Shown in pieces: positions 3,017 to 62,376 of a DNA stretch of 64,000 nucleotides. The DNA comes from Planctomycetales bacterium (lineage in GTDB: Bacteria > 4484-113). Position 1 is the first letter of the stretch. Each line of letters starts with the position of its first letter. The position numbers and the translations under genes were made by a program. A model generated the notes under the pieces. That model saw only the letters and a list, made by a program, of their open reading frames with translations, did no database searches and had not been told where the DNA came from. The DNA lies in assembly GCA_030606285.1 (NCBI GenBank), contig JAUWGS010000002.1, forward strand, positions 125,612 through 189,611, written 5' to 3'.

Positions 3017-3787
3017 ATGGTTCGGCGGACACTCAGCGTGCTCAGCGACCTTATAGCGAGCGTCGCCGGGCTTATGTTTCCCCAGTACTGCATTTTCTGC
3101 GGCGAGCTGGCGGAGACGCTGGTGTGTGATGACTGCGCTGCAAAGCTCACTTCTGTCCAGCATCCCATCTGCCCGCGCTGCGGCAAGCCGCTGAAGACCG
3201 GCGTAGCGCGCAGCGAATGCTTGCACTGCTCCAGCCATCGCTGGTATGTTGATACTGCGCGGGCGCTCTTTGTCTACGAAGGCGAGGGGCGCGATGCTTT
3301 GCACCGCTTCAAGTACGGACGGCGACGCGGGTTGGCACGGTTTTTTGGCAGAGAGCTCTCACGTCAGGCGGGAGACCTGAACCGCCTGGGTGCGCTCTTC
3401 AACTGGGAATTCGGTGAAGAGCCCGAAATGGTGGTTCCAATGCCGCTGCATTGGGGCAAGCGCTTTCTCCGGTGGTTCAACCAGAGCGAGTTGATACTCA
3501 AGTTCTACGCGCCGTCACTTGGCCTGCCGGCGGAGCCTTCAGTTCTGAAAAGAACCAAGTTCACGCATTCGCAGGTAGGGCTGACCGAACCCCAGCGGTT
3601 CGTCAACGTTCGCAAGGCTTTTACCGTTCCTAAACGAGCAGCCGATCGCGTGCGCGGGAAGCGCATCCTGCTGATTGACGATCTGGTGACCACCGGCGCG
3701 ACTCTAAACGCTGCAGCGCGTGCGCTGAAGGACGCTGGCGCGAAGAAGGTCTACGCGCTGTCCTTCTTCACTGCCACGTTGAAGTGA
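3017..3787 (+). CDS. ComF-family protein (double Cys-pair zinc-ribbon-like N-terminus plus phosphoribosyltransferase domain)
   Basis: N-terminal CIFCGE...CDDCAA...CPRCGKP...CLHCS. C-terminal PRTase motif RILLIDDLVTTGATL. Confidence 0.7.
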   Translation: MVRRTLSVLSDLIASVAGLMFPQYCIFCGELAETLVCDDCAAKLTSVQHPICPRCGKPLKTGVARSECLHCSSHRWYVDTARALFVYEGEGRDALHRFKYGRRRGLARFFGRELSRQAGDLNRLGALFNWEFGEEPEMVVPMPLHWGKRFLRWFNQSELILKFYAPSLGLPAEPSVLKRTKFTHSQVGLTEPQRFVNVRKAFTVPKRAADRVRGKRILLIDDLVTTGATLNAAARALKDAGAKKVYALSFFTATLK

Positions 3788-3882: not shown

Positions 3883-3956
3883 GGGGACGTAGTGTAGAGG
3901 CCTAACATACTTGCCTGTCACGCAAGAGATCGCGAGTTCGAATCTCGTCGTCCCCG
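3883..3956 (+). tRNA. tRNA-Asp (anticodon GTC); CCA not encoded
   Basis: Cloverleaf read by eye: acceptor ggggacg/cgtcccc, anticodon loop ctGTCac, T-arm gcgagttcgaatctcgt, discriminator G. Confidence 0.85.
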
Positions 3957-4190
3957 TTTCGTGGCCTTACCTGTCACATATCAACCGGCTCTCCGCGCTG
4001 GTGCGTTCCCCGTCTGGCTTGAAAGGTGTAGGTTTTCAGCCCAATCCCGGTTCATGACGGGCGATGGTAGAATAACCTCGGATTGGTGAATTTCTGGAAC
4101 ACAAGCTGTGCGGCTTCCCGCGCGAACGCAATGCGAAACCGATATGATTCCCGCGCTTCCCTGCGCGACTTCACGAGGAGCTAGTCGCTT

Positions 4191-5045
4191 ATGACCGAAA
4201 TGAGCGTGACGATCCTGCGCGTGGCGCTGTTCGTGTATCTCGCCTCCACAGCCGCGTATCTGGCCCACGCGACCTTTGCCCGGCGCAATGCAGTGGGAGT
4301 TGTGGCGTACGCAGCCCTGGCCGTTGCATTTGCCCTGCACACAGTCTTTCAGGTTATCCGCGTCGTTGAGTACTGGTCGCAGCACCAGGCGTTCATTCTC
4401 CCAACAGCCTCATTCATTGAGGCGGTAAGCTACTGCGCGTGGATGGTTGCGCTGGTTTACCTCGTGGCGGAACGGTTCATCAAGACACGGCTCTTTGGTG
4501 CGGCAATTGGAGCTGCGATAGTCCTGCTTCTCGGTTATGCGATGCTTCATGGTTCAGAGATGGTTCCCCGTCCGCTGATTCCAGCGCTCAAGAGTCCCTG
4601 GCTCAACATACATGTCACGGCGGTAATCCTCTCCTACGCGGGATTCCTGTTCAGCGCCATCGCAGCCGTCTTCTACCTGCTGCGATTGCGCGGAATACGC
4701 TGGGTGGAGAACCTGTTTGCAAACCTGACGCTGGAGGATCACGACATGCTCACCTACAGGTTCGTCGTTTTCGCCTTTCCCATTCTTACTGTGGGGATCA
4801 TCACGGGAGCCATCTGGGCCGACCAGGCCTGGGGGCGTTTCTGGGGCTGGGATCCCAAGGAAACCTGGAGTCTCATTACGTGGCTCATCTGGGCGGGTTA
4901 CCTTCACACCCGATTGGCGTTTGGCTGGCGGGGCGCCCGAAGCGCCTGGTTCGCGATACTCGGAATCATCTCCGTCTTCATCACGTTTTTCGGTGTAAGT
5001 TTCCTCGCCGCCTATTTCAGTGTGGAATCGCTGCACACCTATTAA
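4191..5045 (+). CDS. ccsA: cytochrome c-type biogenesis protein CcsA/ResC (system II heme handling)
   Basis: Polytopic membrane protein with Trp-rich WGRFWGWDPKETWSLITWLIWAGYLH (WWD-type) motif. Confidence 0.75.
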   Translation: MTEMSVTILRVALFVYLASTAAYLAHATFARRNAVGVVAYAALAVAFALHTVFQVIRVVEYWSQHQAFILPTASFIEAVSYCAWMVALVYLVAERFIKTRLFGAAIGAAIVLLLGYAMLHGSEMVPRPLIPALKSPWLNIHVTAVILSYAGFLFSAIAAVFYLLRLRGIRWVENLFANLTLEDHDMLTYRFVVFAFPILTVGIITGAIWADQAWGRFWGWDPKETWSLITWLIWAGYLHTRLAFGWRGARSAWFAILGIISVFITFFGVSFLAAYFSVESLHTY

Positions 5046-43191: not shown

Positions 43192-44172
43192 ATGGTTGAA
43201 AGTAAAGTTACCAGAGAGGCTAATCCGTATTTCGGCCTGCTCACGATGGACCGAGTCGAGGACATCCCGGGTGTCAAGGCACGGTTCGTCTTTGAGCCGT
43301 TGCCACGCGGCTTCGGTTCCACGCTGGGTAACAGCCTGCGGCGTGTACTGCTCTCCGCGGTTCCCGGTTCTGCGATCACGCATGTGGAAATAGCCGGAGT
43401 ACCGCACGAGTTCGCCTCGCTTGCAGGGATTATGGAAGACACGACCGAGCTTCTGTTCAATCTCCGTAAGGTAAGGGTCAAGCTGCTGGACAACGTGGCA
43501 TCCGCGGTGCTTGAGCTGAAGGTCACTGGCAAGAAAAACGTGTCCGCGGCTAACTTCGAGAAGAACCCGGACGTGGAGATAATCGAAGCGAAAAAAGCCT
43601 GCCTGTGTTCGGTGACTAACAAGAAAACGACGCTGGAAATGAAGGTGCATGTTTCACGCGGCGTCGGCTTTGTCCTGGCGGCGGACCTGAAACACAAGGA
43701 CGCCCCCATTGGAGAGATAGCGCTGGATTCCAGTTTCACACCGGTGGAGCGTGTCTCTTTCAGTGTCGAGAACACGCGCGTCGGAAAAGAAACCAACTTC
43801 GAGCGGCTCGTGCTGACTGTCGAGTGCAACGGCTCCAAGACGCCCGACGAGGTGCTCGGCGAAGCTGCATCCCAGCTCAACTCATACTATCAGTGGGTGC
43901 GCGAGGAGCAGAACCGGTTCCTCGGCATCGAGGAAGAGCCCGCGGTGGACGAGGAGCTGATGCGCAAGATTGAGATGCCCATCGAGGATCTCGCTCTGTC
44001 CAGCCGCGCGTACAACTGCCTCTCGGCCACTAGGATCCGCACTGTGGGCGAACTCACAAAGTACACCGCCGAGAAGCTGATGTCCATCAAGAATTTCGGC
44101 GAGAAGTCGCTGGTGGAGATAGTCGACAAGCTGGCCGAGCTCGGGCTGTTCCTCGCGGAGAAGGAGGACTGA
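43192..44172 (+). CDS. rpoA: DNA-directed RNA polymerase subunit alpha
   Basis: RGFGSTLGNSLRRVLLS; C-terminal domain LSSRAYNCLSATRIRTVGEL. Confidence 0.9.
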   Translation: MVESKVTREANPYFGLLTMDRVEDIPGVKARFVFEPLPRGFGSTLGNSLRRVLLSAVPGSAITHVEIAGVPHEFASLAGIMEDTTELLFNLRKVRVKLLDNVASAVLELKVTGKKNVSAANFEKNPDVEIIEAKKACLCSVTNKKTTLEMKVHVSRGVGFVLAADLKHKDAPIGEIALDSSFTPVERVSFSVENTRVGKETNFERLVLTVECNGSKTPDEVLGEAASQLNSYYQWVREEQNRFLGIEEEPAVDEELMRKIEMPIEDLALSSRAYNCLSATRIRTVGELTKYTAEKLMSIKNFGEKSLVEIVDKLAELGLFLAEKED

Positions 44173-49107: not shown

Positions 49108-49473
49108 GGGGGTGACCTGGTTTCGACCGGAAGAGTTGAAGGCGAGGTCGCGGCAGGTGGCAGCCCACGACGTCCACCTAAATCACGCGTGGGAATGGTT
49201 CAAGCGCCAACTATCAGCTTGCTGCAGCTTAAGCTTTAGGCTGCACCTCGATCGGCGCGTCGCCCGGGGCGCGTCGGCGGGGCAAAGTTCCCGGGCTTTC
49301 CGCCGGAGCTGGCCGGCCCGGTGGGAGACATAGGCCTGCACCTCAGGGGCACGGGTGTTCGCGCGCCGTCCCTTTGGTTAAGAGCGCCTGACGCGAAAGA
49401 GCGTGGACTATTGCCGTAGACGCCGCACCGGAAGCTTCCTGGGACGGGGGTTCGACTCCCCCCACCTCCACCA
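49108..49473 (+). ncRNA. ssrA: tmRNA (ssrA), 366 nt, CCA encoded; predicted tag ending ...ANYQLAAA*
   Basis: 5' GGGGGUGACCUGGUUUCGAC start. Acceptor pairs GGGGGUG / CACCUCC with a G3:U70 wobble (AlaRS identity element). 3' GGACGGGGGUUCGACUCCCCCCACCUCCACCA T-arm and acceptor. In-frame tag gcc aac tat cag ctt gct gca gct taa. Confidence 0.8.
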
Positions 49474-53047: not shown

Positions 53048-53278
53048 ACCGCCTAGCAGCTATTGTAGCAGAAGCCGCGTTTCGGTGAGGGGGTATGGGG
53101 CTGGCCAGCCCCACGTCCCCTTGGCTTAGCTGTGGATTCCTTCGTTTTAGGAATCATTTTTCCTACCGTGTTTCCGCGCAGGCAATCTGCTGCATAGGCA
53201 CATCTACCAGAAAAGGTTGCCTGAACCAACGTTTGACGGTATAGTGAAAGTTCAGATGTCGAGGAGGTAGGCGATCAT

Positions 53279-54421
53279 ATGAATTTACACCTGAAACTGC
53301 CACGGATGCCGAAGCTCAGGATCGGCAAACTGGTGGCCAAGATTCCGATCATACAAGGAGGTATGGGCGTCGGAATCTCGCTTTCAGGCCTTGCATCGGC
53401 CGTGGCAAGGGAGGGTGGCATAGGAGTGATCGCAACCGCCGGGATCGGTATGCTGGAACGGGACTTCCAGAGTAATCTCAAGGCGGCCAACGAGCGGGCT
53501 CTGCGCCGCGAGATCAGACAGGCGCGAAAAAAAACCGATGGCATCATCGGTGTGAATATTATGCTGGCCCTGTCGGATTACGGTGAACTCTGTCGGGCGG
53601 CAATCGAGGAGGGTATCGACCTGGTCATCCTCAGTGCGGGACTTCCGCTGAAGGTCCCTGATAACATGCCACCGGACTGGCCTCGGGGCTGCAGCAGCAT
53701 GATCGTGCCCAAGGTGTCCTCCGGCCGGGCTGCCCGTCTGATATTCCAATACTGGGCAAGACACTACGACCGCGTGCCTGACGCTGTTGTTCTCGAAGGG
53801 CCGATGGCTGGCGGTCATCAAGGATTCCGCAAGGAAGACCTGGACAATCCAGACTTCGGGGTGGAAAAGCTGGTACCCGATGTCATCGCTGCAGTGCGCC
53901 CCTTCGAGCAGCGTTACGGGCAGCAAATCCCGGTGATTGTTGGCGGTGGCATCTTCACGGGCGCGGATATTCACCGCTTCTTGCAGATGGGCGTCCAGGG
54001 CGTGATGATGGGCACGAGATTCGTGGCCACATACGAGTGTGACGCCCACGAGCACTTCAAGGAAGCGTACTTGAACTGCCGGAAGGAGGATATGGTCGTA
54101 ATCGACAGCCCGGTTGGGCTGCCGGGCCGGGCTATTCTCAATAAATACTTGAAGGACGTGGCCGAGGGGATCCGCAAGCCATACAAGTGTTTCTGGAAGT
54201 GTCTTCGCACCTGCGATGTCCGGAACGCGCCCTACTGCATCGCCCAGGCTCTGACTAACGCCAAGAAGGGCCTGCTCGAGGAGGGCTTCGCATTCGCGGG
54301 CTACAACGCATACCGCGTGAACAAGATCGTTTCGGTGAAGAATCTCATCGAATCGCTGGTCTGGGAATACCAGCGCGCAGTGGCGGCGGCGACTGCGACA
54401 CTGCGACCCGTACACGCCTGA
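53279..54421 (+). CDS. nitronate monooxygenase / FabK-like FMN-dependent oxidoreductase (NMO family)
   Basis: PIIQGGMGVGIS motif, TIM-barrel NMO signature; 380 aa. Confidence 0.65.
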   Translation: MNLHLKLPRMPKLRIGKLVAKIPIIQGGMGVGISLSGLASAVAREGGIGVIATAGIGMLERDFQSNLKAANERALRREIRQARKKTDGIIGVNIMLALSDYGELCRAAIEEGIDLVILSAGLPLKVPDNMPPDWPRGCSSMIVPKVSSGRAARLIFQYWARHYDRVPDAVVLEGPMAGGHQGFRKEDLDNPDFGVEKLVPDVIAAVRPFEQRYGQQIPVIVGGGIFTGADIHRFLQMGVQGVMMGTRFVATYECDAHEHFKEAYLNCRKEDMVVIDSPVGLPGRAILNKYLKDVAEGIRKPYKCFWKCLRTCDVRNAPYCIAQALTNAKKGLLEEGFAFAGYNAYRVNKIVSVKNLIESLVWEYQRAVAAATATLRPVHA

Positions 54422-55187: not shown

Positions 55188-55658
55188 CTAAGGCTCCTCG
55201 CCGCTCACCTTGTTGATATCAAGTATGCCCTCGGAGGCTTCCCGCTCTTCCTTCGCTTTCTTGCACGCCGGGCACAGGCCAAGGAGCTCCAGCCGATGCC
55301 CGATAACCTCATAGTCGCAGAGATCGCGGAACGCCTGCTCCAGGTATGTAAACGGCTGCACGGGCAGATTCTCCACCCGGCCGCAGCGTGCGCATCTGAC
55401 GTGGTAATGGTCCTTCGTGTCGGCGTCGAAGTGCTTCTTCGAGCAGCCGACTTCGAGCACCTGGATCTTTCCCCATTCGCATAGGGCTTCGAGGTCCCGG
55501 TAGATGGTGCTCATGCTGATGCGCGGCAGGCGCTTCCTGACCGCCTCGTAGACCTCGTCGGCCGTGGGATGGCAGTCAAGTTTCCTTATTTCCTCGAGGA
55601 TAACCCGCCGCTGCCGGGTCATCCTGAGTTCCTGATTTGACGAATTGCGATTACCCAA
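55188..55658 (-). CDS. Fur-family transcriptional regulator (Fur/PerR/Zur-type), copy 2
   Basis: MTRQRRVILEEI DNA-binding helix. Two CxxC pairs (RCARCG, CPACK). Start 30 nt after the nuoF-like stop; alternative start MTRQRR. Confidence 0.7.
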   Translation of the reverse strand: MGNRNSSNQELRMTRQRRVILEEIRKLDCHPTADEVYEAVRKRLPRISMSTIYRDLEALCEWGKIQVLEVGCSKKHFDADTKDHYHVRCARCGRVENLPVQPFTYLEQAFRDLCDYEVIGHRLELLGLCPACKKAKEEREASEGILDINKVSGEEP

Positions 55659-55688: not shown

Positions 55689-57581
55689 TTAGGCAGCCCC
55701 CGCGGGCGCCACTGCGGGTGACCTTTTTTCGACGGCATTCTCTTTACATATCTGCACGCAGGCGCCACACTTGTCGCAGAGAGTCTGGTCGATCTCACGC
55801 AGCAGCCCTTCCTTGCGCTTCTGTCTTCGAACAGAATGGATAGCTAAGGACGCACAGGCTTCTTCGCATTCGCCGCAGCCGTTGCAGAGGTCAGGAACGA
55901 TGTGATAGGAAATGAGCGATTGGCATACTCCCCCGGGGCACTTGTGCTCAACGATGTGAGCAGTGTATTCATCCCGGAAATACTTGATGCTGGACAGCAC
56001 GGGGTTGGGAGCTGATTTCCCGAGTCCACAGAGCGCAGTTGCGGCAACCGTCTCGGCAAGTTCCTCAAGGTCGTTGATATCCTTGAGCTTACCTTGCCCG
56101 TCGCAGATCCGGTGCAGAATCTTGGACATCTGCCTGAGCCCCTCGCGGCAAGGGAGGCACTTCCCGCAGCTTTCGTCGATGAGGAAATCGATGAAGTACT
56201 TGGCCACGTCTACCACACAGGTGTGTTCATCCATCACGATCATCCCGCCCGAGCCCATCATTGAGCCGGCATCAGTCAGCGCATCAAAGTCAACGGGAAG
56301 ATTAAGCTTGCTCTCCGGCAGCATCCCTCCGGACGGTCCTCCGGTCTGAACCGCTTTGAACTTCCCATCCTTCTTTATGCCGCCGCCGATATCATAAACG
56401 ATTTCCCGCAGCGAAGTGCCCATTGGCACCTCTATCAGCCCGGTGTTGTTGACTTTGCCCACGAGCGAGAAGACCTTGGTGCCCGGGCTTCCTTCCGTTC
56501 CGATGCCGCGGAACCACTTGGCGCCCTTGTTGATGATGTGCGGGACGTTCGCCCAGGTCTCGACATTGTTGAGGGTCGTCGGTTCGTCGTGGAAGCCCTT
56601 TTCAGTGGCGTGGGTGAACTTGTCGCGCGGCTCGCCAACCTGTCCGTCAAGCGAGCGCATGAGGGCCGATGACTCCCCGCAGACAAAGGAACCTGCACCG
56701 AACGTCATGTCGATATCGAAGCTGAAGTCGGTGCCGAGGATATTGTCACCCAGCAGGCCAAGTTCCCTGGCCTTGTCCAGCGCTGCGCTGAAGGTCTTGA
56801 CAGCCTGAGGATATTCGTGGCGTATGTAGATGTAGCCGTTGGTTCCTCCAATTGCGTACGCGCCGATGAGCATTCCCTCAATCACCGAATGCGGGTTGCC
56901 CTCCAGGACCGCTTGGTCCATGAATGCGCCGGGATCACCCTCGTCGGCGTTGCAGATGATGTGCCGGCGGTCGCCGGGAGCTTCCTTGCAGCTCTTCCAC
57001 TTCCAGCCTGCCGGGTATCCGGCGCCTCCGCGCCCCCGCAGGTTCGCCTCAATCATCTCCTCGATAATGTGTCCAGGCTCCATCACCTGCAGGGCTTTCG
57101 CGAGCGCGGAATATCCACCGTGCGCCAGATAGTCATCGATGCGGAGAGGGTCGACATAGCCATTCAGCGCCAGTACGATACGGTGCTGTTTCGAGTAAAA
57201 CTCGATCTCGTGCTCCCGTCCCAGTTTTTCGCCGGTACCGGGATGCGTGTATAGCAGGCGGTCAACCACCTCATCTTCCTCCTTGGTAGACCGCATGATA
57301 TCTGTTACATCGCCGGGCTTTACCATATGGTAGAAGATGTTTGCCGGACGGACAACGCTGAGCGGACCGTATTCACAGAAGCCCTGGCACCCGCTTTTGA
57401 TGAACCTGATATCGCTGCTCCCTGTGGTCAGCTTCTCGAAAACGTTCGCGACTTCCTCTGAGCCTGCGGCCCGGCACGACGCTCCCTGGCAGACGGAAAT
57501 GACGAGCGGGTACTCCTCGAACTCACGGCGGCACTTGTCCTGAAACAGCTTGAACTGCTCGATGCTCCTAAGCTTCTCCAT
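55689..57581 (-). CDS. NuoF-like flavoprotein (NADH dehydrogenase 51-kDa-type; HydB/HndC-like with N-terminal [2Fe-2S] thioredoxin-like domain and C-terminal 2x[4Fe-4S] domain), copy 2
   Basis: RGRGGAGYPAGWKW FMN/NADH motifs, NADEGDPGAFMD, ESCGKCLPCREG 4Fe-4S motif, C-terminal CxxCxxCxxxC pairs. Confidence 0.8.
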   Translation of the reverse strand: MEKLRSIEQFKLFQDKCRREFEEYPLVISVCQGASCRAAGSEEVANVFEKLTTGSSDIRFIKSGCQGFCEYGPLSVVRPANIFYHMVKPGDVTDIMRSTKEEDEVVDRLLYTHPGTGEKLGREHEIEFYSKQHRIVLALNGYVDPLRIDDYLAHGGYSALAKALQVMEPGHIIEEMIEANLRGRGGAGYPAGWKWKSCKEAPGDRRHIICNADEGDPGAFMDQAVLEGNPHSVIEGMLIGAYAIGGTNGYIYIRHEYPQAVKTFSAALDKARELGLLGDNILGTDFSFDIDMTFGAGSFVCGESSALMRSLDGQVGEPRDKFTHATEKGFHDEPTTLNNVETWANVPHIINKGAKWFRGIGTEGSPGTKVFSLVGKVNNTGLIEVPMGTSLREIVYDIGGGIKKDGKFKAVQTGGPSGGMLPESKLNLPVDFDALTDAGSMMGSGGMIVMDEHTCVVDVAKYFIDFLIDESCGKCLPCREGLRQMSKILHRICDGQGKLKDINDLEELAETVAATALCGLGKSAPNPVLSSIKYFRDEYTAHIVEHKCPGGVCQSLISYHIVPDLCNGCGECEEACASLAIHSVRRQKRKEGLLREIDQTLCDKCGACVQICKENAVEKRSPAVAPAGAA

Positions 57582-58098
57582 TGTTTTCCTCCTTGTTGGC
57601 CCGTTTCCTGAGCCTTTTCACAAGCGCATCGACCCGATCGTGCGTTACATTCGCGTGGTATTCGCCGTCGACCACAAGGACCGGGCCCATAGAGCACGCG
57701 CCTATGCAGTTGACAGACTCCAGCGTGAACAATCCATCATCAGACGTCCCGTTCCAGGGGATCCCGTGCCGCTTATCCAGCGTTTTTGCTAGCAGTGCCG
57801 AACCTAGTATGTAGCAGCCAGTGCCCGTGCAAAGCTGCAGGATGTGCTTGCCCCGCTGCACGAGGCTGAACACTTTGTAGAAGGTTGCAATGTGGTAGAT
57901 CTGACCTTTGGGAACGCCAAGGCGTATCGAGATGTACTCCAGAGCCTCCTGAGGAAGCCAGTTGTACTTCTCCTGGACGGCGAGCATGGCCATGATAGTT
58001 TTCGACGGATTGCCCGCCCACTTCCCTATGAGATCTTCGACTTCTCGTTCGATTTCGCTTGCCGGTTCCGTCATCTCTGGATGTCCGGTTGCTTCCAT
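57568..58098 (-). CDS. NuoE-like [2Fe-2S] thioredoxin-like subunit (24-kDa-type), copy 2
   Basis: LAVQEKYNWLPQEALEYIS...CTGTGCYILG...CIGACSMGPV. Confidence 0.8.
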   Translation of the reverse strand: MEATGHPEMTEPASEIEREVEDLIGKWAGNPSKTIMAMLAVQEKYNWLPQEALEYISIRLGVPKGQIYHIATFYKVFSLVQRGKHILQLCTGTGCYILGSALLAKTLDKRHGIPWNGTSDDGLFTLESVNCIGACSMGPVLVVDGEYHANVTHDRVDALVKRLRKRANKEENNGEA

Positions 58099-58323
58099 AG
58101 TTCATTCCTCCTCGTTTCGTTCTCATGCCAATCGGATGCTCAGTCGACCCTCATAGCACCTCCCCCTTATTGCGCAATCAGCGCAGTCTTGCGAATACGC
58201 AGCTCGTAATAACTCCTATTTCCCTTCAGCTTCTTAACCGGACATCTGTAGCGTGAGCGCATCTCCGCAAAACCCTTACACAATAATAACACCTATTCTA
58301 GCAATGTCAAGCTCATTCTATCA

Positions 58324-58342
58324 GGAATAGGGTATTCCCTTA
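58324..58342 (+). promoter_or_regulatory. operator-like inverted repeat GGAATA-ggg-TATTCC(CTTA) upstream of cassette-2 nuoE-like gene
   Basis: Matches the motif AATAGG-N(1-3)-TATTCCC found twice upstream of cassette 1. Confidence 0.4.
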
Positions 58343-58458
58343 CATAGTAACCTGATATGGTAAGCGGGATGTCCAGGCGAAAGCCTGCGTAGCTGGGGAA
58401 TGGCCTTTTGCGCGTACGGGCGAAGGTCAGTTTCTTGTAGAGATGGGGATTACACGCC

Positions 58459-58920
58459 TTAGCCTTTCTTATCTGCCGCAACCGGTTCAGTGGCGGCTTG
58501 TCTTTGCTCTTCTTTCTTCTGCTTCAAGCATTCCGGGCACAGCCCAATGAGCTCCAATCGGTGCCCGATTACTTCGTAGTCGCATAGATCGCGGAATGCC
58601 TGTTCCAGGTACGTGAACGGCTGCACGGGCAGATTCGTCACTCGGCCGCAGCGTACGCATCTGGCGTGGTAGTGATTATTGGTATCGGCGTCGAAGTGCT
58701 TCTTAGAGCAGCCGACCTCAAGCACCTGGATCTTGCCCCATTCGCACAGCGTTTCGAGGTCTCGGTAGATGGTGCTCATGCTGATGCGTGGTAGCCGCTT
58801 CCTGACGGCCTCGTAGACCTCGTCGGCTGTCGGATGGCCGTCGAATTTTCTTGTCTCCTCAAGGATGACCCGGCGTTGCCGGGTCATCCTGAGTTCCTGA
58901 TTTGACGAATTGCGATTCAC
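58459..58920 (-). CDS. Fur-family transcriptional regulator, copy 1
   Basis: About 90% identical to copy 2 in the first 110 aa. Same 30-nt spacing after the nuoF-like stop. Confidence 0.7.
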   Translation of the reverse strand: MNRNSSNQELRMTRQRRVILEETRKFDGHPTADEVYEAVRKRLPRISMSTIYRDLETLCEWGKIQVLEVGCSKKHFDADTNNHYHARCVRCGRVTNLPVQPFTYLEQAFRDLCDYEVIGHRLELIGLCPECLKQKKEEQRQAATEPVAADKKG

Positions 58921-58948
58921 CTGTTAGAGACCATCTGCCCTGTCTCCG

Positions 58949-60847
58949 TCAGCTCCTGGCCGCGCCTACCGGAACTTCTGCCGGAGAGCGCTTCTCGATG
59001 GCATCCTCCGGACAGATCTCGATGCAGGCGCCACACTTAACGCAAGCTTCAAGGTCGATTTCGTGAAGCAAGCCATCCTTGCGCTTCTTCCCGCGTACCG
59101 TGTGGATAGCGTCGACCGGACAGATTTTAGCGCAGGCTCCGCAACCGGTGCAGGATTCCGGCAGGATGTGGTAGGAGATCAGCGCCTTGCAGACGCCGCC
59201 GGGGCACCTGTGCTCAACGATGTGCGCAAGGTACTCCTCGCGGAAATGCCTGATACTCGAAAGTACCGGGTTCGGTGCTGACTTCCCGAGTCCGCAAAGC
59301 GCGGTTGCTGCAACCGTCTCGCCGAGCGCCTCCAGGTCGTTTACGTCCTTGAGCTTGCCGTCCCCGTCGCAGATCCGGTGGAGCATCTCGGACATCTGCC
59401 GGAGTCCTTCACGGCAGGGCAAACACTTGCCGCAGCTCTCATCGATCAGGAAGTCGATGAAGTACTTGGCTACGTCAACAACGCATGTGTCCTCGTCCAT
59501 TACTATCATGCCTCCCGAGCCCATCATTGAGCCCGCTTCAGTCAGCTCGTCGAAGTCCACAGGGAGGTCCAGCTGGGCTTCCGAGAGCATCCCGCCGGAC
59601 GGCCCGCCGGTCTGCACTGCTTTGAATTCCTTGTCTTCTTTGATGCCGCCGCCAATGTCGAAGACGATTTCCCGAAGCGATATTCCCATCGGGACCTCGA
59701 TGAGGCCGGTGTTTTCCACCTTGCCGACGAGCGAGAAGACCTTCGTGCCGGGGCTGTCCTTGGTGCCGATACCCCGGAACCACTGCGCGCCCTTGTTGAC
59801 GATGTGCGGTACGTTCGCCCAGGTCTCGACGTTGTTGAGGTTTGTGGGCTCGTCATGGTACCCCTGCTCGGTGGCGTGGATGAACTTGTCGCGCGGCTCG
59901 CCGACCTGTCCCTGGAGAGAACGCACAAGCGCGGATGATTCGCCGCATACAAACGCGCCGGCGCCGAAGCACACCTGGATGTCGAAGTCGAAGCCGGTGC
60001 CGAGGATGTTCTCGCCCAGCAGGCCGTAGTCTCTCGCCTGGTCCAGGGCGTTCTGGAACGTATGCACGGCGTACGGATACTCGTGGCGAATGTAGATGTG
60101 GCCGTCGGTTCCGCCGATGGCGTACGCGCCGATGATCATGCCTTCGATGACCGAGTGCGGGTTGCCTTCCAGGACCGCCTGGTCCATGAACGCGCCCGGG
60201 TCGCCCTCGTCGGCGTTGCAGATGATGTGGCGGCGCTCGCCGGGCGCTTCGCTACAGGTCTTCCACTTCCATCCTGCGGAGAAGCCGGCGCCGCCACGCC
60301 CGCGCAGGTTCGCCTGGATCATCTCCTCGATGACCTCCCCGCGCTCCATCCCGGTCATTGCCTTGGCGAGCGCGGAGTACCCATCGTAGGCGAAGTAGTC
60401 CTCGATCCTGAACGGATCGATGTACCCGTTGAGCTCCAGCACTACCCGGTGCTGCTTCGCGTAGAAGTCGATTTCGTGCTCTTTACCGAGCTTCTCCCCA
60501 GTTGTCGGATGCGCGTAGAGCAACCGGTCAACGACCTCGCCGCGTTCGACCGTCTTCTGCATAACCTCGCTGGCGTCACCGGGCTTGAGCATCTGGTAGA
60601 AGATATTCGACGGTCGGACAACGCTTAGTGGGCCCTTCTCGCAGAAGCCCTGGCATCCGCTTCTGATGAATCGGATGTCACTGCTTCCCCCGACGATTTT
60701 CTCAAATGCGTTGGCGACTTCCACGGCGCCGGTCGCCCGGCACGACATCCCATGGCAGATGGAAATGACCATGGGGTAGGCCTCAAGCTCCTTGCGGAAC
60801 TTTTCCTGAATGACTTTGAGCATTTCAGCTGATTCGATTCTAGGCAT
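58949..60847 (-). CDS. NuoF-like flavoprotein (HydB/HndC-like), copy 1
   Basis: About 80% identical to copy 2. Same domain order. Confidence 0.8.
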   Translation of the reverse strand: MPRIESAEMLKVIQEKFRKELEAYPMVISICHGMSCRATGAVEVANAFEKIVGGSSDIRFIRSGCQGFCEKGPLSVVRPSNIFYQMLKPGDASEVMQKTVERGEVVDRLLYAHPTTGEKLGKEHEIDFYAKQHRVVLELNGYIDPFRIEDYFAYDGYSALAKAMTGMERGEVIEEMIQANLRGRGGAGFSAGWKWKTCSEAPGERRHIICNADEGDPGAFMDQAVLEGNPHSVIEGMIIGAYAIGGTDGHIYIRHEYPYAVHTFQNALDQARDYGLLGENILGTGFDFDIQVCFGAGAFVCGESSALVRSLQGQVGEPRDKFIHATEQGYHDEPTNLNNVETWANVPHIVNKGAQWFRGIGTKDSPGTKVFSLVGKVENTGLIEVPMGISLREIVFDIGGGIKEDKEFKAVQTGGPSGGMLSEAQLDLPVDFDELTEAGSMMGSGGMIVMDEDTCVVDVAKYFIDFLIDESCGKCLPCREGLRQMSEMLHRICDGDGKLKDVNDLEALGETVAATALCGLGKSAPNPVLSSIRHFREEYLAHIVEHRCPGGVCKALISYHILPESCTGCGACAKICPVDAIHTVRGKKRKDGLLHEIDLEACVKCGACIEICPEDAIEKRSPAEVPVGAARS

Positions 60848-61370
60848 CTTTTGCCTCCTTCTCAGCCAGCCGCTTCAGTCTCTTGACGACTGCGCCTGCG
60901 CGATTCTGCGTCATGTTTCCCCGGTGCTTGCCGTCCACAACCAGAACCGGGCCGATTGTGCAGGCTCCCACGCAGTTCACGCGTTCCAGTGTGAACAGCC
61001 CATCCTCGGACGTACCTCCCAGCGGAATCCCGTAGTCCCTTTCCAGGGCGTCCGCCACCATGGGTGCGCCTCGAACGTGGCACGCTGTTCCCATGCAGAG
61101 CTTGAGGATGTGCTTGCCCCGCGGGACCAGGCTGAACACCTTGTAGAACGTCGCGATGTGATAGATCTGGCCCTTGGGGACCTCGAAGCGCCGGGAGATA
61201 TAGTCCAGGGCGTCCGGCGGCAGCCAGTTGTACTTGTCCTGAACCGCCAGCATAGCCATGATCAGCTTTTCCTGGTCTCCCCCCCAGTCTTTGACCAGCT
61301 CCTCGACCTCCTTGTCGGTCTGCGAAGTTGGCTCGATTACACTAAGTTCCCTTATTGCCTCCATGGTCAC
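60840..61370 (-). CDS. NuoE-like [2Fe-2S] subunit, copy 1
   Basis: LAVQDKYNWLPPDALDYIS...CMGTACHVRG...CVGACTIGPV. Confidence 0.8.
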   Translation of the reverse strand: MTMEAIRELSVIEPTSQTDKEVEELVKDWGGDQEKLIMAMLAVQDKYNWLPPDALDYISRRFEVPKGQIYHIATFYKVFSLVPRGKHILKLCMGTACHVRGAPMVADALERDYGIPLGGTSEDGLFTLERVNCVGACTIGPVLVVDGKHRGNMTQNRAGAVVKRLKRLAEKEAKDA

Positions 61371-61407
61371 CTCCGATGCCCTTTCGCTATTGTCTTCATA
61401 ATTAGCG

Positions 61408-61499
61408 AATAGGAACTATTCCCATTATATCGTCCGAAATGGGGTCTGTCAACCCCCTGTAAGGAAATTTAACCTATGCAAATAGGAATTATTCCCATT
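61408..61499 (+). promoter_or_regulatory. two copies of AATAGGAAnTATTCCCATT (61408-61426, 61481-61499), 73 bp apart, in the promoter region of cassette 1; palindrome GGGGTctgtcaACCCC between them
   Basis: AT-rich motif island in a GC-rich intergenic region. Related motif upstream of cassette 2. Candidate binding site for the co-transcribed Fur-family regulator. Confidence 0.45.
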
Positions 61500-61779
61500 T
61501 TGCAGTTATCAGAAGGGACATCTGTGCTCTCAGGTCTAAACCCGCAAATGCAGGCTCAGCACGCTGGATTGAGTCTAGCGTTGCTGAAGTGTCTGAATCT
61601 AGAGACCAGTTGCCACTCACTCTCAGTTGTGATGCCCAAAAGAGCCTTCGCGGGCTGATGATCACTGCGCTGACCTTCTGAGTTGAGTCGATGGCGCTGC
61701 CGCTTGAGTATCAAGCTCGCACACTGCACAGCTAGGTTCTGTGCTAGTATCTTCGGAACGCTTTCAGCGGGGGTTGTAT

Positions 61780-62376
61780 ATGGCCTATTTGCTTACCGCA
61801 GCGATTGTCGTCGTTGTAGCTCTAATTGCATTATGGCTCATCGTAGCCTACAACCGCTTCATTCGCGGCACGAACCTTGTGCGCGAAGCGTGGAGCGGCA
61901 TAGACGTGCAGCTCAAGCGCCGTCACGACCTAATCCCCAACATTGTCGAAGCCGTCAAGGGATACAGCAGCCACGAACGCGAGGTGTTCGAAGAAGTGGC
62001 GGCGCTGCGGGCGAAAGGTGCGGACGACGACGTGCTCAAGCGCAGTGAAACGGAAAACGCACTCACTCGTTCGATTAAGACTCTCTTCGCGGTCGCCGAG
62101 GATTATCCCGAGCTCAGAGCCAACGAGAACTTCCTCTCGCTGCACGAGGCGCTGGTCGAGGTCGAGGACGATATCCAGTACGCTCGCCGGTACTACAACG
62201 GTACGGTGCGCGACTTCAACATCCGGGTGGAGGCTTTCCCCAGCAACTTAGTTGCCGCTGCGTTCAGCTTCAGGCGCAAAGTGTACTTCGAGATTGAGCT
62301 GGCGAGCGAGCGTGAAGCGCCGGAAATGGACCTGTCGGATACGCGCGAAGAATCTTCGGAGGGGCACGATGCATAA
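61780..62376 (+). CDS. LemA-family membrane protein
   Basis: N-terminal TM (LLTAAIVVVVALIALWLIVAY) then NRFIRGTNLVREAWSGIDVQLKRRHDLIPN...YYNGTVRDFN. Confidence 0.75.
   Translation: MAYLLTAAIVVVVALIALWLIVAYNRFIRGTNLVREAWSGIDVQLKRRHDLIPNIVEAVKGYSSHEREVFEEVAALRAKGADDDVLKRSETENALTRSIKTLFAVAEDYPELRANENFLSLHEALVEVEDDIQYARRYYNGTVRDFNIRVEAFPSNLVAAAFSFRRKVYFEIELASEREAPEMDLSDTREESSEGHDA

Follow-up and report, generated by a model that had tools for sequence, protein, structure and literature searches.

Two 19-bp repeats lie upstream of a flavoprotein gene cassette in a 64,000-nt stretch of a Planctomycetales bacterium genome (GTDB lineage 4484-113; assembly GCA_030606285.1, contig JAUWGS010000002.1, positions 125,612 to 189,611), hereafter called the window. 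The window carries two cassettes of the order nuoE-nuoF-fur, each encoding a NuoE/NuoF-like pair of predicted NADH-oxidizing flavoproteins and ending in a gene for a Fur-family regulator. Judging from sequence comparison, it is very likely that both repeats are PerR-type operators (AATAGGAAT-n-ATTCCTATT) of the co-encoded PerR-like repressors. A first-pass annotation made from the DNA letters had already suggested that the sites serve autoregulation by the co-encoded Fur-family regulators, and this suggestion is upheld: the repeats are of Fur type, one of them overlaps a promoter with a 12/12 match, they are phylogenetically footprinted, and the same box lies 5' of homologous regulator genes in many phyla. 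The motif itself is of a kind known before. More unusual are the link between PerR and NuoEF and the clade-wide change of Asp104 to Asn in the regulators.

Repeats and promoter of cassette 1

Both 19-mers are exact, AATAGGAACTATTCCCATT at 61408-61426 and AATAGGAATTATTCCCATT at 61481-61499, and their spacing of 73 bp is as first described. The pair is far above chance: no other site with up to three mismatches occurs in the window, and shuffled sequences give an expectation of 0.02. An independent repeat search recovered a 22-nt direct repeat, GCrAATAGGAAyTATTCCCATT, at the same spacing; outside these 22 nt the two copies are flanked by unrelated DNA. With the looser pattern AATAGG-N1-3-TATTCC the window yields three matches (0.00 expected), always where the first-pass annotation had placed them, and of its 13 AATAGG/CCTATT hexamers, 5 fall within the upstream regions of the two cassettes, which total 772 bp (P = 3e-7). 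The surrounding GC content, given earlier as 63%, measures about 59% over the window and about 54% locally.

The cassette genes are encoded on the minus strand. When read on this strand, each 19-mer is a 9-1-9 inverted repeat, AATgGGAAT-A-rTTCCTATT, with arms that are symmetric at 8 of 9 positions in the distal site and at 7 of 9 in the proximal site. The inner 7-1-7 unit, TgGGAAT-n-ATTCCTA, retains the T...AAT-n-ATT...A frame of Fur-family boxes, and the repeats thereby show the form of a Fur-family operator, that is, a 19-bp inverted repeat with a single central base and an A/T-rich AAT-n-ATT core. Box scores are given here as matches to the 18 specified positions of the palindromic consensus AATAGGAATnATTCCTATT. 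At 14/18 or better, the window holds only the two cassette-1 boxes and one cassette-2 box.

A promoter scan found TTGACA-17-TATAAT upstream of cassette 1, a 12/12 match to sigma-70 promoters. In gene orientation the order of elements is ...AATGGGAATAATTCCTATT-(29 nt incl. AAGGTTAAATTTCCTTA)-TTGACA-17 nt-TATAATGGGAATAGTTCCTATT..., and the first three bases of the proximal box are the last three of the -10 hexamer. The proximal box hence overlaps the core promoter, as operators do, and would span the transcription start, which we infer to lie at about 61417. The A/T-rich block AAGGTTAAATTTCCTTA, between the distal box and the -35 hexamer, sits at the position of an UP element and may act as one; it can also be read as AAGG-N8-CCTT. 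The palindrome GGGGTctgtcaACCCC that had been reported between the two repeats is present at 61441-61456, but it is the -35 box: its core is TTGACA. We rejected GGGGT..ACCCC as a separate site, since the embedded TTGACA alone is conserved and the G/C arms are not kept in two of the related loci introduced below (L161 and L176).

The conservation of this region was assessed by scanning an alignment of the regulators against genome and metagenome collections, which gave 160 loci, with further members added by exact-protein look-ups. NuoE-NuoF adjoins the regulator only in a narrow clade (regulators at least 58% identical), which leaves about five independent upstream regions for comparison. The five lineages with cassette-1 upstream DNA are the window, L001/L002, L173, L161/L163 and L176. 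In their alignment the invariant columns fall in both boxes, the -35 and -10 hexamers and the A/T-rich block from about -43 to -58. Excluding the overlap with the -10 hexamer, 28 of the 35 box columns are invariant (80%), compared with 14 of 115 (12%) across the spacer, the leader and the upstream flank of the distal box (Fisher P = 8e-14). The proximal box contributes 14 of 16 columns outside the -10 hexamer and the distal box 14 of 19. The two boxes are 73 bp apart in four lineages and 82 bp apart in L176. More divergent cassettes have the same box beside the -10 hexamer (TATAATAGGAATAACTCCTATT in L084, ATAGGAATAACTCCTATT in L165). Across about 130 kb of close-clade loci, all matches of at least 14/18 lie upstream of a nuoE gene, and the box precedes nuoE-nuoF-fur in every lineage with sequence for that region.

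These data bear on whether the repeats are protein-binding sites at all. They could instead be the leftover of a local duplication, part of an AT-rich promoter architecture or a leader RNA hairpin, given that the proximal copy is partly transcribed and that A/T-rich tracts are common around promoters. However, a likeness confined to 22 nt between unrelated flanks does not fit a duplication, the distal copy lies upstream of the -35 hexamer and is not transcribed, and conservation is much higher in the box columns than in the leader beside them. An Rfam search, run on 58000-61900 at E<=1 and on the whole window at gathering thresholds, gave no match in the cassette upstream regions, and a hairpin from both arms could not form because the inferred start falls within the proximal box. 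We therefore give such explanations almost no credence.

One decayed copy was seen among the related loci. At L165 8729-10251 / L166 5934-7456 a second cassette has its NuoE split into two open reading frames (ORFs) and its NuoF reduced to a 161-aa C-terminal Fe-S fragment; the Fur gene is retained, and a full box still lies 5' at L165 8659.

The box and its probable regulators across phyla

Operators of PerR in Desulfovibrio were predicted by Rodionov et al. 2004 (Genome Biol 5:R90, Table 7; PMC545781), with the consensus AwnAGnAAtngTTnCTnwT and with predicted sites at D. vulgaris rbr2 (AATAGGAATCGTTCCTGTT), D. vulgaris ahpC (cACAGGAATGATTCCTGTT) and D. desulfuricans perR (ttTAGGAATGGTTAtTATT). 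The same paper quotes the Fur box as GATAATGATnATCATTATC and the B. subtilis PerR box as TTATAATnATTATAA (PMC545781). The window's proximal box fits the Desulfovibrio consensus and agrees with the rbr2 site in 16 of 19 bases. On sequence grounds, the window sites are members of this known class, the Desulfovibrio-type PerR box, and they retain the 9-1-9 / 7-1-7 architecture of the Fur family; the earlier idea that they define a new specificity does not hold. The accompanying statement that they do not match the canonical Fur box was correct, with 10 of 18 positions in common with GATAATGATnATCATTATC when counted by hand. A full-text literature search for the motif strings returned unrelated primer sequences only.

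The likeness to the Desulfovibrio system extends beyond the near-identical 19-bp palindrome. In both cases the box is found tens of bp 5' of an operon with a perR-like gene, in overlap with the promoter, and autoregulation of that gene is predicted. The operons differ, being nuoE-nuoF-perR with the regulator last in the window and perR-rbr-rdl, rbr2 or ahpC in Desulfovibrio. The window furthermore has two full boxes 73 bp apart, and its host belongs to an uncultured deep lineage and not to Desulfovibrio. With the classical Fur box the window sites share the length, the 9-1-9 symmetry and, among the common positions, the central AT-n-AT, but the arms are AATAGGAAT here and GATAATGAT in Fur, and unlike in classical Fur systems no iron-uptake genes lie nearby. 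The 7-1-7 layout and the AAT-n-ATT core recur in the B. subtilis Per box, and promoter occlusion, the mode of repression in B. subtilis, is what we propose here; box positions 2-4 are AGG in the window and TAT in B. subtilis.

A second, more distant set consisted of 154 loci with regulators 45-60% identical to those of the window, none of them linked to NuoEF, from Desulfobacterota, Planctomycetota, Syntrophothermus, Elusimicrobiota, Nitrospirota, Coatesbacteria and others. In this set, matches to AATAGGAATnATTCCTATT number 33 at 14/18 or better, compared with 8 for a reversed-pattern control, and 11 at 15/18 or better, compared with 0. The matches cluster directly 5' of the regulator gene start: in 29 of 144 loci the best match between -150 and +20 of the regulator gene reaches at least 13/18, whereas the control pattern does so in 5 of 144 and a downstream control stretch in 0. 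In 70 of the 154 loci the regulator is in a perR-rubrerythrin operon or no more than 8 kb from oxygen- or peroxide-defence genes (rubrerythrin, superoxide reductase, AhpC, flavodiiron and flavin-reductase-rubredoxin were counted). Further boxes in these loci precede genes for glutaredoxin, rubrerythrin and universal stress protein (Usp). The box is hence a predicted marker of an oxidative- or redox-stress regulon of this PerR-like subfamily.

An unrelated redox regulator of NuoEF/Hnd-type genes, such as Rex, a Crp/Fnr protein or an Rrf2 protein, might also be thought to own the repeats, and Rex often controls NuoEF-like flavoprotein modules. Yet the Rex operator TTGTGAA-N6-TTCACAA has no match in the window at up to three mismatches, the motif has the Fur-family 9-1-9 form and AAT-n-ATT core, and it co-occurs with Fur-family genes in the 154 unrelated loci, where NuoEF is never beside the regulator. 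This explanation is very improbable.

Two groups of boxes in the distant loci stand apart from the regulator genes. In Desulfobacterota-like loci (L053 2473, L104 4644 and L160 11724) a box lies between a CODH/prismane-family gene and a divergent gene for ferredoxin-thioredoxin reductase (FTR), and in L044, L067 and L073 a box lies 5' of a small glutaredoxin gene. The CODH/FTR and glutaredoxin genes are possible extra members of the PerR-type regulon. Within the window, TTTAGGAATCATTTTTCCT at 53146-53164 (TAGGAA-N6-TTCCTA) lies about 115 nt 5' of an NMO/FabK-like gene starting at 53279. We rejected it as an operator: its score of 12/18 is at chance level, related loci have no counterpart, and its occurrence is probably due to chance.

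The regulators themselves resemble PerR. Database versions of regulator 1 start at Met12 and are 142 aa long, with P0001 being 100% identical. Its best NCBIfam matches are PerR models, below cutoff, its nearest named relatives are repressors from Desulfosarcina and other Desulfobacterota (about 54% identity), and among solved structures B. subtilis PerR is closest (2fe3, E=6e-25). The structural Cys4 zinc site of two CxxC motifs is present (invariant residues C88, C91, C128 and C131), and of the five ligands at the regulatory site of PerR four are conserved, His37, Asp85, His91 and His93 corresponding to H29, D77, H83 and H85. The fifth position, Asp104 in PerR, is Asn96 here and is Asn in 30 of 30 cassette-linked proteins, so that the regulatory site departs from that of canonical PerR; the distant homologues divide into 143 with Asp and 12 with Asn. 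According to PMC4866751, Asp at this position is the hallmark of PerR and governs the access of H2O2, and Fur typically has Glu there; the residue is reported to set the H2O2 reactivity of PerR as opposed to Fur. In helix H4, Arg53 (His in a few proteins) aligns with PerR Asn61, and the whole subfamily has Arg, as in Fur, or sometimes His. Nor is the Per box TTATAATnATTATAA present, the box core being TAGGAAT and not TTATAAT. According to PMC8638967, citing Caux-Thang 2015, Asn versus Arg in H4 separates Per-box from Fur-box recognition. The H4 Arg would fit a box unlike that of B. subtilis.

Regulators 1 and 2 are 80% identical and have the same recognition-helix segment, SMSTIYRDL; both paralogues should therefore read the same DNA and probably cross-regulate both cassettes. 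The boxes could also be genuine Fur-family operators that are bound by another Fur/PerR paralogue elsewhere in the genome, with the cassette regulators acting on other targets. The window covers just 64 kb of a contig at least 253 kb long, the cassette regulators could have diverged in function given their unusual Asn in place of Asp104, and Fur-family paralogues often have similar boxes (PMC545781). Against this, the position of the box directly 5' of the homologous regulator gene across phyla is the pattern of autoregulation, within the cassette clade the box invariably accompanies an operon that ends in the regulator, and the DNA-reading residues are kept with distant homologues (TVYRxL / TIYRDL). 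We consider binding by another paralogue to be improbable.

Cassette 2 and further features of the window

The coordinates of both cassettes and their upstream elements are collected in Table 1. In cassette 1 the nuoF start overlaps the nuoE stop by 8 nt, and neither a terminator nor a promoter is predicted between nuoF and the regulator gene. The nuoF-like protein has an FMN/NADH domain, an N-terminal 2Fe-2S domain and C-terminal 2x[4Fe-4S], and NCBIfam nuoF_fam matches it below cutoff.

Table 1 Elements and genes of the two nuoE-nuoF-fur cassettes, in window coordinates
Feature	Position	Strand	Details
Proximal PerR-type box, cassette 1 (predicted)	61408..61426	-	gene orientation AATGGGAATAGTTCCTATT; 16/18 to consensus; centre ~+1
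Distal PerR-type box, cassette 1 (predicted)	61481..61499	-	gene orientation AATGGGAATAATTCCTATT; 17/18 to consensus; centre ~-73
-10 hexamer TATAAT, cassette-1 promoter	61424..61429	-	12/12 promoter scan; invariant in 5 lineages
-35 hexamer TTGACA, cassette-1 promoter	61447..61452	-	promoter scan; 5/6 columns invariant
A/T-rich block AAGGTTAAATTTCCTTA	61459..61476	-	~-43 to -58; 12/18 columns invariant in 5 lineages including divergent L176
nuoE-like gene, cassette 1	60840..61370	-	thioredoxin-like [2Fe-2S] ferredoxin, 176 aa; Pfam PF01257 E=6.6e-42
nuoF-like gene, cassette 1	58949..60847	-	632 aa; Pfam PF01512, PF10589, Fer4
Fur-family (PerR-like) regulator 1	58459..58920	-	ORF 153 aa; Pfam FUR E=2e-24
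Cassette-2 promoter TTGACA-16-TATTAT with TG extension	58283..58310	-	scan 11/12; kept in window, L001, L163
Cassette-2 three-quarter box over -10 (candidate)	58279..58297	-	gene orientation AATAGGTGTTATTATTGTG; 12/18; 17/19 columns (89%) invariant, three lineages
Cassette-2 three-quarter box, leader ~+65 (candidate)	58202..58220	-	gene orientation AATAGGAGTTATTACGAGC; 13-14/18; 16/19 columns (84%) invariant
Cassette-2 palindrome GGAATAgggTATTCC	58324..58338	.	centre ~-55; <12/18 to 19-bp consensus
nuoE-like gene, cassette 2	57568-58098	-	ORF; cassette = 55188..58098
nuoF-like gene, cassette 2	55689-57581	-	ORF
Fur-family regulator 2, cassette 2	55188-55658	-	ORF; Pfam FUR E=1.2e-25

Upstream of cassette 2, the first-pass annotation had singled out an inverted repeat as the counterpart of the cassette-1 sites. 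The palindrome GGAATAgggTATTCC is indeed present and has its hexamers in common with the cassette-1 boxes, but its half-sites are arranged as GGAAT-N5-ATTCC, compared with GGAAT-N1-ATTCC in the cassette-1 boxes. L001/L081 have GGATATTGCCTATTTCC in its place and L163 has GGGATTTACCTATTTC, and 9 of the 15 columns of the palindrome (60%) are invariant, against a background of 46-65%. With the wrong half-site spacing and no conservation in L001, L081 and L163, GGAATAgggTATTCC was rejected as an equivalent operator and is probably not the functional counterpart of the cassette-1 boxes. The sequences CCTATTCT and TATTTCCC, listed earlier as weaker matches nearby, do occur and lie within the best-conserved blocks of the region, two three-quarter boxes placed over the -10 hexamer and in the leader. 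In each of these the left arm and the centre are intact and the right arm has decayed, and together they form a 14-nt direct repeat with a spacing of 77 bp. They are candidate operators because of their position, conservation and pairing; their scores alone are at chance level.

The same region holds a second 14-nt direct repeat, CCCTTACAyArTAA (TTAyTrTGTAAGGG in gene orientation), at 58273-58286 and 58337-58350, 64 bp apart, the upstream copy of which lies within the strongly conserved stretch GGTTACTATGTAAGG. The cassette-2 leader of about 180 nt (58099-58276, minus strand) is unusually long and well conserved in three lineages. When folded, the 181-nt leader was no better than shuffled sequences (z=0.18), and with this result and the absence of Rfam matches the reading as an RNA element was dropped. 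In two related loci, runs of N that represent scaffold gaps lie exactly at the cassette-2 promoter region (L161 ~4184-4272 and L162 ~3200-3300). Tandem cassettes probably confuse assembly, and cassette copy number in such metagenome-assembled genomes (MAGs) may be unreliable.

On the other side of cassette 1, GTTCTGTGCTAGTATCTTCGGAACGC at 61737-61762 lies just 5' of a divergent lemA gene (ATG at 61783). Its conservation reaches as far as L161 and L176, the most divergent loci, and the sequence probably represents the core promoter of lemA, with TGcTAGTAT as an extended -10. The window's only Rfam matches at gathering thresholds are a tmRNA gene (49108-49473, 117 bits) and one tRNA gene (3883-3956).

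Proposed repression, possible signal and significance

In the mechanism that we propose, a metal-loaded repressor dimer on the proximal box would block RNA polymerase. The distal box, about 7 helical turns upstream, would take up another dimer that strengthens repression through cooperativity, through looping or because it masks the UP-like element. Once the regulatory metal is oxidized or lost, the repressor would be released, and the operon would then be transcribed including the repressor gene, which would result in negative autoregulation. Cassette 2 would be controlled through its two weaker three-quarter boxes (at -10 and about +65) and not through the palindrome GGAATAgggTATTCC.

Several observations weigh against this picture. 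The five lineages are related, and the conservation of the boxes is only partly independent evidence. Strict helical phasing of the two boxes was considered and rejected: the 82 bp of L176 is not a whole number of turns beyond 73, which weakens the looping idea, and looping is accordingly offered as a suggestion. Cassette 2 has degenerate boxes only, and matches of 12-13/18 occur at chance frequency across the window. Two canonical hallmarks of PerR are absent, with Asn for Asp104 and Arg or His for the H4 Asn61, and the sensed signal may therefore not be H2O2. The 64-kb window contains no classical peroxide-defence gene, and no box of at least 14/18 was found at the oxidative-stress clusters beside the cassette in L165 and L169.

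Peroxide or oxygen stress is the most likely signal, but it is also the least certain step of the proposal because of the Asn ligand. The cassette-linked regulators could instead form a distinct sensor clade that responds to something other than bulk H2O2, which we consider rather unlikely. The signal may then be O2 or reactive oxygen species arising at the flavin, the status of Fe-S or iron, or the redox state that the regulator's own NuoEF partner delivers. If this were true, nuoE-nuoF-perR would be a self-contained and duplicable module of redox sensing and electron supply for the oxygen defence of anaerobes.

Returning to the cassettes as predicted targets of PerR-type repression, the gene content of sister lineages points to a role for the flavoproteins. 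Directly 3' of the cassette regulator in L169 (1202-8931) and L165 (10432-14903) lies an oxygen-defence cluster encoding an ArsP/HMA permease-like protein, two rubrerythrins, AhpC, desulfoferrodoxin, a hemerythrin-PAS protein, a ZIP transporter, a flavodiiron protein and a flavin-reductase-rubredoxin. This arrangement suggests that NuoEF may supply NADH electrons to oxygen defence. Clostridial PerR regulons contain NADH-linked proteins that deliver electrons to rubrerythrin, desulfoferrodoxin and flavodiiron proteins. They resemble the cassettes in combining a PerR-type repressor (here predicted) and an NADH-oxidizing flavoprotein alongside the genes with which anaerobes detoxify O2 and peroxide (here in the sister lineages), but the flavoprotein is a NuoE/NuoF (HndA/HndC-like) pair here and not an NROR-type enzyme. 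A literature search for a link between PerR and NuoEF found nothing relevant.

The RpoA of the window (43192-44169) is 81% identical to that of a MAG labelled Ca. Riflebacteria RBG_13_59_9 and 71% identical to that of 'Planctomycetales bacterium 4484_113', followed by values below 55%; the host therefore belongs to an uncultured, poorly classified, deep-branching lineage. For this lineage our analysis provides a well-defined, predicted map of promoter and operators. It also indicates that the Desulfovibrio-type PerR box is widespread, occurring beside homologous regulators in Planctomycetota, Elusimicrobiota, Nitrospirota, Bacillota and others, which strengthens the 2004 prediction. The clade-wide change from Asp to Asn offers a testable lead on how Fur-family sensors are retuned. 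Finally, a NuoE/NuoF-like pair of NADH-oxidizing flavoproteins is an unexpected predicted member of such a regulon, and hints at a route by which NADH electrons may reach the rubrerythrin, superoxide reductase or flavodiiron defences of some anaerobes.

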